From Escherichia coli (GTDB lineage: Bacteria > Pseudomonadota > Gammaproteobacteria > Enterobacterales > Enterobacteriaceae), in the NCBI RefSeq assembly GCF_045037415.1, contig NZ_CP173438.1: DNA of 64,000 bases. The stretch is one strand, 5' to 3'. The position numbers were made by a program. This document shows positions 49,601 through 52,600 of the stretch, piece after piece (within the stretch, counting starts at the first letter, position 1; each line of letters starts with the position of its first letter).

Positions 49601-52600
49601 CTTATCAATTTTTTTCGTTATTCTTAAGCTCTTCTCATTATGAAAATTATACCTCCCAATCATTTTTCCTTTAATGAATAATAATCCGCCGCCACTTTTT
49701 TGTGTCCAGTCACTACTACCAGTTTCATCTATTTCTCTTCCTGCCCATATCTCTCCATTTTTTTCCAGACTACCCCATGTTGGGTATCCCTCTTGCAGCT
49801 TTCTTAACAAATGAACGGCATGAACACCTTGAGATACCGGAATGCTAAGATATTGAGAATCTATACTAGACAAATCAAAAAAACCTAGTGATTTAATATT
49901 TAAGTTTTTATCATACACACTAAGTTGAATATTATCATTAAGGGATTCACCTTTATTAAAAATAAAAGAACATGAAGAAACATCAGCACCGCCGAATAAT
50001 TTAGCCTCAGCTGGATAATAATTTATGCAATCAATCCTCCCTGAATTAAAAAACTTTTCACGTAATATGTACGATTGTTCATCTGCGAAAAAAGATGCAG
50101 GCATAACTATAGCTACCAATCCATTTTTATTACATATTTCTAAGCTAAGTTCTGCACCAACACGTGAAAGATTAGTCCCCCACCCAGCAAATTTACGCTT
50201 CGGCTGAGAATATGGCAATACTCTTGACAAATAATCATCAAACTCACGAAGAGAGTCTATATACATCGATTTCATAGATGGTTCAAAAAAATCGAGCTCT
50301 CTAGAATCTGGTTTTATATTCTCCCAAGGCGGATTGGTTATAACACAATCAAAATAATCAACATATTTTTTAAATTCATAAAAAACATCACTATTTTTTA
50401 TAGTAATGTTAATATTTGCACCTGCTAACTTAAGTTCAGACAACGCATTTTTAGCATAAGTGAGGCCTGTATTTTCTATATCGAACAGATAAACATTCCA
50501 CTCTACATCTGGAAAACCATTTATCATCCATTGTTTAATAAGCAATGTAATAAGTCGACCATCCCCTGAAAATGGATCTGCGACATTATAACTTTTTTTA
50601 TCACAGGAATTTATCAATGGTAATAACTTCTCTATCATCAAAAGAGCTATTTTTGGATCTGTATAGTATTTACCTGTCGCTTTTTTAGTGAATTTTGTTG
50701 TCTCGTCCAAGGACAGTGAATTAATTAAATGGATATGTTTCATGTAAAATATCTCTTCCATTAATAATATGGATTATATCATTTAACTTGTGAACACTCA
50801 ACAATAACTGTACATAAAAACAGTCATTAAAGATTTCCCCTAGAGTGAGCATCGCTATAAAAATTTAAATTAATTTTATCCTGCTCCGAAAGAAACAGTT
50901 ATCATTTATTCCATAAAGAATAACTTGCTTTATAATCACTTTAAATATCGATATCAATTTTAATACTATGGTTACTTACCATATCAATAAATAGCTTAAC
51001 CCGTTATCTCGATACCCCTTAAGAACCCCTTCCGCAACTGCAACATAATCTACGCTCATCCACATGCCTGGTGCGTATTACCGTGAAGGAGATCGGTGAG
51101 TTATTGAGTGATCTCCTTTCATGAAAATACGCACCTGGCTTTAACTGTTCCTGATATAAGTTGACAGTTTTCTGTCCGTAAAACGGTTGATGAACTTCAT
51201 CGGGCGTTTTGTATTTCAATGCCAAATGTGACCGCTCATGGTTATAAATTGCCACGAATTCTTTTACCATTTACCGGCCCTACGTCAGCTCTGCAGGACG
51301 CGAGAGTAAAAACTCATTTTCAGGATTCCGTTTATCCACTCAGCCTGCGCATTCTGGTGGCAGTTATAACCATTAGTCATTGAACAGGTTATTGATAAAT
51401 AATTAAAAAACTCAGTTTTCTGGCTCGCCTGCTCAAGCTGTTCTTCAAGTTCCCTGATTCTTTGCTCGGGTGTCAGCGGGACAGTCGCCAGAGCCACAGG
51501 CAGTCTCCTCTTTACCTGGTCAGGAAGTCCGGGGCTCCAGTCAAGCCGGCCATATTTACGCAACCAGACAAGAACGGTGGAGCGCCCCTGAATGCCATAA
51601 CTGCAGCCGGCCTGTTTATAAGTCATCTCGCCTTTTTCAACCTTCTCAACAACGGCTATTTTAAAGGATAGAGGATAATCACGTTGAGTGCGTTTGAACC
51701 CAGACATCATCACGTTCTCCGGGTTTAAGTCAGGAACGTGTCATAGCTATTCAGGACGGGTCACCGACACAAAAAAAGTCGCCCTTGAGCGACTCGATTT
51801 GCATACGGTATGGTGCTGCGTATTACCGTGAAGGAGATCGGTGAGTAACATCGATGGAGATCGGTTCGTGTCACTTTCACAGAACCGTTTTTAAATTACC
51901 TTCACTGATCTCCTTCGGTCAACGGAGATTGTATTTTCCGCATTGATTCTCCTTTAAGTTCGATCTTGATACTGCCATGAACCAGTCGATCTAGGATGGC
52001 ATCCGCATGTGTGGAGTCTCCGATCATTTTGTACCAGTTTTCCACCGGCAACTGGCTCACTACGATGATTGAGCCTCGTTGGTACATCAGATCCACTATT
52101 TCCAGCAGGTCGCTACGCTGTTCTGATGAGAGAGGTTCCAGCCCCCAGTCATCCAGAAGCAGCAGATCGCTATTATTCAGCCTGGTCAAAAGTTTGCTGT
52201 ATCTTCCATCAGCATGCCCCTGATAGCACTGTTCCATCAGCGCTTTAAGGCGATAATAGTAGACCTTGTATCCCTGTCGGCAGGCATTATGACCAAGTGC
52301 ACATGCCAGGAACGTTTTACCGCTGCCGGTGGCCCCGGTCAGTAAAATATTTTGTTTCAGGGTTAACCAGTTTCCCTGACTGAGTGAACGGATGAGGGCC
52401 CTGTCCAGCCCTCTATTGTTACGATAATCCAGCTTTGATAACTCAGCATTAAGTCTGAACCGTGCATGTTTGATCAGACGCTCTGCCTTCCTGTTTTCAC
52501 GGCAGGTTAGTTCTTCTGCTGTCAGTAATGACAGGCGTTCTTCGAAGCCCAGCTCCTGGTATGTGCCCGGTTGAGCAAGTTGCTTTTTAAGCGCATCACG

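Follow-up and report, generated by a model that had tools for sequence, protein, structure and literature searches.

A 62-bp remnant of ISEc12 in an Escherichia coli genomic island is very probably an inert relic of internal deletion in place

The window, i.e. the whole stretch of 64,000 nucleotides analysed here (E. coli contig NZ_CP173438.1 of assembly GCF_045037415.1), matches ST131-type E. coli, and the locus of interest lies in a genomic island within it. Upstream, at about 46768-50761, a type IIS restriction-modification set annotated as Alw26I/Eco31I/Esp3I family is observed, consisting of an endonuclease, a cytosine-5 methyltransferase and an adenine methyltransferase (49121-50761, minus strand) and adjoining McrC, while genes of a CP4-44-like prophage remnant are found downstream. 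Between them lies what is left of an IS3-family element, of which two fragments can be recognised, both on the minus strand: a C-terminal transposase fragment (the tail of orfB) at 51019-51270, which matches positions 344-369 of the 369 positions of NF033516 (the NCBIfam model of the IS3 transposase), and an N-terminal (orfA/HTH) fragment at 51285-51713, which matches positions 2-78 and is annotated by RefSeq as a partial HTH pseudogene. Profile positions ~79-343 are missing, and the host element (51019-51713) thus appears to be an internal-deletion relic itself. The C-terminal fragment is interrupted, ~19 codons after the last position conserved in the transposase, by the 62-bp sequence that is the subject of this study (51072-51133, hereafter the remnant). 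The open reading frame fragments around it both match NF033516, so that its location in a decayed IS3-like transposase gene, as given in a preliminary description of this DNA, is correct. Removal of 67 bp in silico yields an open reading frame that reads through the junction, which is weak as evidence for an empty target. At the same locus, one metagenome contig (L021, from position 1122) carries a deletion of ~32 bp a few bases past the right-hand side of the remnant (CCTGGCT|GTCCGTAAAACGG), which corresponds to about 51141-51172 of the window.

The remnant reads TGCGTATTACCGTGAAGGAGATCGGTGAGT (30 bp) joined to TATTGAGTGATCTCCTTTCATGAAAATACGCA (32 bp). Its left half (51072-51101, plus strand) is an exact match to 51817-51846, i.e. 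the window-left terminus (istB side, conventionally IRR) of the IS21-family element that lies some distance to the right at 51817-54397, whereas its right half (51102-51133, plus strand) is an exact match to 54366-54397, the window-right terminus (istA side, conventionally IRL) of the same element. The identity, 30/30 and 32/32, is thus observed directly and the two halves retain their native relative orientation. That IS21-type ends are joined here had already been recognised in the preliminary description. Each half is present exactly twice in the window, and neither was matched in 100 dinucleotide-preserving shuffles. On both sides the remnant is bordered by the pentamer CCTGG (51067-51071 and 51134-51138), a 5-bp target-site duplication that can be read directly from the sequence. 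At the junction, both parental sequences read AGT (51099-51101, plus strand), with GGTGAGT|AAC as the context in the left end and GGAAGT|TATT in the right end, so that the halves are joined at a microhomology of 3 bp.

A 122-bp stretch made up of the remnant and its flanks was found in 533 complete E. coli genomes that had been assembled independently, as well as in ~12 metagenome contigs, and the remnant is therefore not an assembly artefact; the CCTGG duplication that had been claimed for it stands as well, the flanks recurring in all 533 genomes. RefSeq gives no annotation at the remnant in the genomes matched. The sequence is short and non-coding, and its hairpin potential is strong (a DNA minimum free energy of -20.6 kcal/mol, z = -9.4). 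A regulatory or RNA role was considered and rejected, as neither a promoter-like or terminator-like site nor a match in Rfam was found in the remnant.

The complete element at 51817-54397 (2,581 bp, minus strand) is flanked by its own duplication, GGTGC, at 51812-51816 and 54398-54402. It encodes a 513-aa IstA (istA, 54204-52663, minus strand) and a 249-aa IstB (istB, 52651-51902, minus strand), and identical copies are annotated by RefSeq as ISEc12, of the IS21 family. ISEc12 is present, at least in part, in 1,908 of the 5,426 complete E. coli genomes. Its site in the window (51817) is empty in EC958, in Nissle 1917 and in metagenome contigs L006 and L021; the window copy is a separate and later insertion than the one from which the remnant derives. 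Both ends of ISEc12 contain AGATC motifs at a strict spacing of 23 bp, namely at positions 19 and 42 of the istB-side end (51817-51956) and at positions 20, 43, 66 and 89 of the istA-side end (54258-54397). These repeats are presumably the IstA-binding units. When the repeats are mapped onto the remnant, only the outermost one is left in each half: AGATC at 51090-51094 on the left, and GATCT at 51110-51114 on the right. For the related IS5376 it has been demonstrated in vitro that IstA achieves integration only when two complete repeats are present at each end, the outer repeat being bound by the catalytic subunits and the inner one by structural subunits (PMC10122671).

The most informative allele with respect to the origin of the remnant is found in strain SF-088, where a complete ISEc12 of 2,581 bp occupies the exact position of the remnant, in the same orientation and between the same two copies of CCTGG. 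This copy has 0 mismatches to the copy in the window, and the flanks differ at only 1 of 1,650 positions. A chimeric junction probe, in which 150 bp of the left flank were joined to the initial 200 bp of the complete ISEc12, was covered for at least 80% in 58 E. coli genomes, and about 55 genomes other than SF-088 share its junction; among the matches listed, 9 of 12 were in a single piece at 100% identity. The left junction is shared by APEC O78, where the insertion sequence and the island are truncated on the far side. Conversely, the remnant is also found in Nissle 1917 and ATCC 25922, where the ISEc12 probe matched nothing else, which means that in these strains it was inherited with the island and not made locally. 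The preliminary description had left two origins open, mobilisation in trans and collapse in place, and at this locus it is the latter that is supported by the SF-088 allele. The SF-088 allele also bears on the possibility that the 62 bp are the terminus of the IS3-like element itself; that reading was rejected, as a whole ISEc12 replaces the 62 bp at the same point, and is further countered by the occurrence of the identical 62 bp in a plasmid context without IS3 sequence (see below).

It is therefore very probable that the remnant is an internal-deletion relic of ISEc12 that was formed in place and is now an inert scar. The sequence of events would be as follows. A full-length ISEc12 would have inserted into the tail of an IS3-family element that was already resident (the pre-insertion state of that site is presumed), thereby duplicating 5 bp of the target (CCTGG). 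In the island lineage that is now present in ST131, Nissle 1917, ATCC 25922 and their relatives, 2,519 internal bp would then have been deleted in place between the two AGT trinucleotides, probably through microhomology-mediated joining, so that 30 bp of one tip, 32 bp of the other and both copies of CCTGG were left. The product, having no genes and only one of the two or more AGATC repeats per end, would be transpositionally inert and would since have been inherited with the island. The direction from full-length to miniature is argued here by parsimony and not on the basis of a rooted island phylogeny.

The reverse order of events would require that the 62-bp allele is the older one, and that the full-length allele of the SF-088 type was restored from it by recombination or gene conversion through arms of 30 bp and 32 bp. 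Strains that contain several copies of ISEc12, which could act as donors, are common, and the arms come close to the shortest length at which RecA-dependent exchange takes place; nothing speaks more directly for such a restoration. Recombination through ~30 bp is, however, very inefficient, and the origin of the 62-bp allele would still have to be accounted for. Furthermore, the full-length allele is found in diverse backgrounds (APEC O78, ACN001, and isolates from river water and a pangolin), which suggests that it is old. Taken together, this makes an older 62-bp allele hard to credit.

An entirely different explanation is that the 62 bp arrived at CCTGG as a unit, i.e. as a miniature inverted-repeat element (MITE) mobilised in trans by resident IstA/IstB, in which case the full-length copy that other strains carry at this site would have inserted independently. 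Two separate insertions would then have to have hit one and the same nucleotide, with identical orientation and duplication. A genome-wide search for further copies with other flanking duplications had been proposed in the preliminary description. A junction-specific 44-mer was used (51081-51124), which is centred on the junction and cannot match the ends of full-length ISEc12. It was found in 528 of the 5,426 complete E. coli genomes at 528 places, with a maximum of one per genome, always on the chromosome and never on the plasmids of those 528 genomes. Many of the genomes that contain the remnant also contain several matches to ISEc12 ends, i.e. resident copies. As the remnant is strictly a single chromosomal copy per genome despite co-resident ISEc12, it is a relic and not an amplifying MITE; the label of miniature element that it had been given is fair for its anatomy, but does not describe its behaviour. 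The several copies within a genome that characterise a MITE are thus lacking, and so are complete transposase-binding ends, in view of the single repeat that is kept per end versus the two known to be needed by IS5376. In addition, a DNA of 62 bp would be far too short to form a loop that brings both of its ends together in a single synaptic complex. Arrival as a mobilised unit at the locus in the window is consequently regarded as highly improbable, even though some observations at other loci do speak in its favour.

The first of these concerns the IncF plasmid pKSE-C30_1 (CP124989; L004:3001-3062), in which the identical 62 bp is located between hok and finO, with a perfect new duplication, GAAGA, on both sides. 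In a near-identical plasmid (L029) the site is unoccupied and contains a single GAAGA, and ~406 plasmids cover at least 80% of the site probe without the remnant and were read as empty sites. A full-length ISEc12 at the GAAGA site was not found in any of the 72,556 plasmids of PLSDB. This is to be distinguished from plasmid pB17EC0157-1, where the copy is part of a captured 3.2-kb piece of the same island, remnant included. The identical 62 bp occurs at yet a third site in three independent metagenome contigs (L024:8835-8896, L009 and L014), without a duplication; in L024 the flanks read AGGCA on the left and CTCTT on the right. Here the remnant is 133 bp away from the end (8701) of another IS21-family element, which is about 70% identical and has its istA at 6163-7830, while on the other side it directly adjoins a fragment of an IS110-family element, namely the last 250 bp of that element. 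No counterpart of this locus was found in the complete E. coli genomes. The search for copies with differing duplications thus yielded one plasmid copy (with GAAGA) and one type of metagenome copy (without any).

Besides these identical copies, a number of near-variants were found. A 61-bp variant, in which one T of the junction is missing, borders directly on a truncated ISEc23-like tnpC of the IS66 family without duplication, and is carried by 14 E. coli genomes (e.g. NZ_AP024114) and by metagenome contigs L023, L025 and L018. Contig L018 was observed to share the left flank of L023 and the variant itself, with the divergence starting exactly at the right tip of the variant; its right flank may be the result of a rearrangement at the tip or of a chimeric assembly. 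An IS66-family element harbours a 58-bp variant (26|32) between repeats of GTATA(C) (L007:3001-3058, strain EC11; L022), and an 82-bp variant (33|49) is located on the IncI-gamma/K1 plasmid pRHB15-C06_2 (L005:3001-3082), with CTTTA repeated. Finally, a relative that is about 85% identical over the remnant has given rise to a variant of ~70 bp (about 32|38), at one locus in 60 genomes (L008:2999-3068 in strain 998, and 59 others), near papX and sfaY and between a degenerate duplication, GTGCA/GAGCA. Full-length ISEc12 was not found at the sites of the 58-bp or 61-bp variants. The duplications at the other ISEc12-type sites, GGTGC, GAAGA and CTTTA, are all of 5 bp, as is CCTGG. Among GTDB species-representative genomes neither the gapped miniature pattern nor the left flank of the third site was matched, and one scan of viral contigs gave no match.

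The occurrence of the identical 62 bp at two other sites counts against collapse in place, since it is more easily produced by a mobile element than by repeated identical deletions at AGT, one of 64 candidate junctions (see below), and the 61-bp and 58-bp variants may be descendants of the 62-bp form that have undergone small indels. A weaker claim than arrival as a unit in the window can be derived from this, namely that 62 bp with a single IstA-binding repeat per end is occasionally mobilised in trans by ISEc12. It is based on the identical copy in pKSE-C30_1 with its fresh GAAGA and the absence of full-length ISEc12 there among the plasmids searched, and possibly also on the further sites occupied by the 58-bp and 61-bp variants. 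Such occasional mobilisation seems unlikely, yet considerably less so than arrival as a unit at CCTGG. If true, the remnant would be an IS21-family MITE, and both the requirement for two repeats and the constraint of DNA looping would have to be bypassed in vivo, for example by pairing of ends from two DNA molecules. We know of no IS21-family MITE that has been described as such, and a literature search of partial coverage returned no account of the remnant or of an IS21-derived MITE, an absence that is in itself no proof.

The lengths of the derivatives and the positions of their break points show a clear pattern. All short derivatives within the range of the searches, in which the two ends were no more than about 590 bp apart, measure 58-82 bp, and most of the break points are 3-15 nt inside the outermost AGATC repeat, the exception being the right break of the 82-bp variant at 25 nt. 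Within 80 bp of the ends, 64 candidate junctions with a microhomology of at least 3 bp are available, some of them of 5-8 bp. Microhomology was therefore rejected as the cause of the recurrent junction: AGT is only one of 64, and the junctions of 5-8 bp, though available, were not used. Random deletion at microhomologies would not give the clustered pattern of 58-82 bp.

A tentative explanation for this clustering, which is possible though not favoured by the balance of the evidence, is that ISEc12-type elements recurrently and preferentially collapse to a minimal form, and that the copies at the other sites are independent collapses. This could proceed either through degradation of the interior up to ends that are protected by IstA, followed by joining at microhomology, or through abortive gap repair after excision. 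The narrow size range, the position of most breaks just inside the outermost repeat and the fact that the variant differs from one E. coli site to the next all point in this direction. On the other hand, a full-length intermediate was found neither at the GAAGA site nor at those of the 58-bp and 61-bp variants, and the latter two forms may descend from the 62-bp form. Survivorship is equally possible, as derivatives that keep two repeats per end may remain excisable and be lost; mechanistic bias and survivorship are not mutually exclusive. Recurrent collapse concerns the mechanism and the other loci, and is compatible with collapse in place at the locus in the window. As to the same 62-bp junction at three unrelated sites, a hot spot for the deletion, rare mobilisation in trans and conversion of a full copy with a remnant as template are each possible. 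Whichever of these applies, the copies at other sites leave the conclusion for the window locus (i.e. internal deletion in place) unaltered.

The surroundings of the remnant were also compared between strains. In different strains, independent full-length ISEc12 insertions were observed on the right-hand side of the remnant, at distances of 99, 186, 683 (the window copy) and 2,899 bp; the loci compared were 51134-54402 of the window, AHB10 (L032), Ecol_276 (L031), EC958 (L001) and SF-088 (L028). All of these neighbouring insertions are in the orientation of the remnant, and the allelic copy at its own site comes in addition, so that ISEc12 insertion seems to have a regional hot spot here. Target immunity was once proposed for IS21 (PMC11208146). 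Since ISEc12 has inserted 99, 186 and 683 bp away from the relic, a pair of ends with a single repeat each does not confer such immunity.

In practical terms, roughly 10% of the complete E. coli genomes, among them those of ST131, Nissle 1917 and ATCC 25922, carry the remnant as an unannotated scar. It marks one lineage of an island that also contains restriction-modification genes and remnants of prophages, and genome annotators should not take it for an active element. Its value for the study of transposons is modest, and is to be sought in the comparison of relics with one repeat per end rather than in this particular copy. That pattern is either the footprint of how ISEc12-type elements die, or the consequence of derivatives with complete ends failing to persist. 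The remnant itself is ordinary in kind; what interest remains is in the clustered minimal relics, the plasmid copy at GAAGA and the insertions beside the relic.

Several known systems invite comparison. In the reactive junction of the tandem (IS21)2, two ends are abutted with a few bp between them, and the remnant likewise consists of two IS21-family ends close together. It was nevertheless rejected as a reactive junction, because the tips of the remnant (TG… and …CA) face outwards and its inner sides are fused, while in the reactive junction the tips face each other. Maize Ds (derived from Ac) and defective P elements are closer in structure; their internal deletions have classically been attributed to abortive gap repair, a route that is not known to be used by IS21-family elements or in E. 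coli. Like these, the remnant retains both termini and the duplication, with the interior lost and a short microhomology at the junction, but the ends of the Ds and P derivatives usually remain functional and allow their mobilisation in trans. Bacterial MITEs are non-autonomous derivatives of insertion sequences which have retained the terminal inverted repeats and depend on mobilisation in trans. The remnant resembles them in being small and non-coding, with terminal inverted repeats of an autonomous insertion sequence, a duplication and hairpin potential, and differs in that it is unamplified, has its ends cut to one repeat each and originates from a deletion in place. From ISEc12 itself, finally, the remnant differs by the absence of istA and istB and of the second and further 23-bp-spaced repeats, and by its length of 62 bp versus 2,581 bp, whereas the likeness consists of termini that are 100% identical, a duplication of 5 bp and an allelic full-length copy at the very same site.
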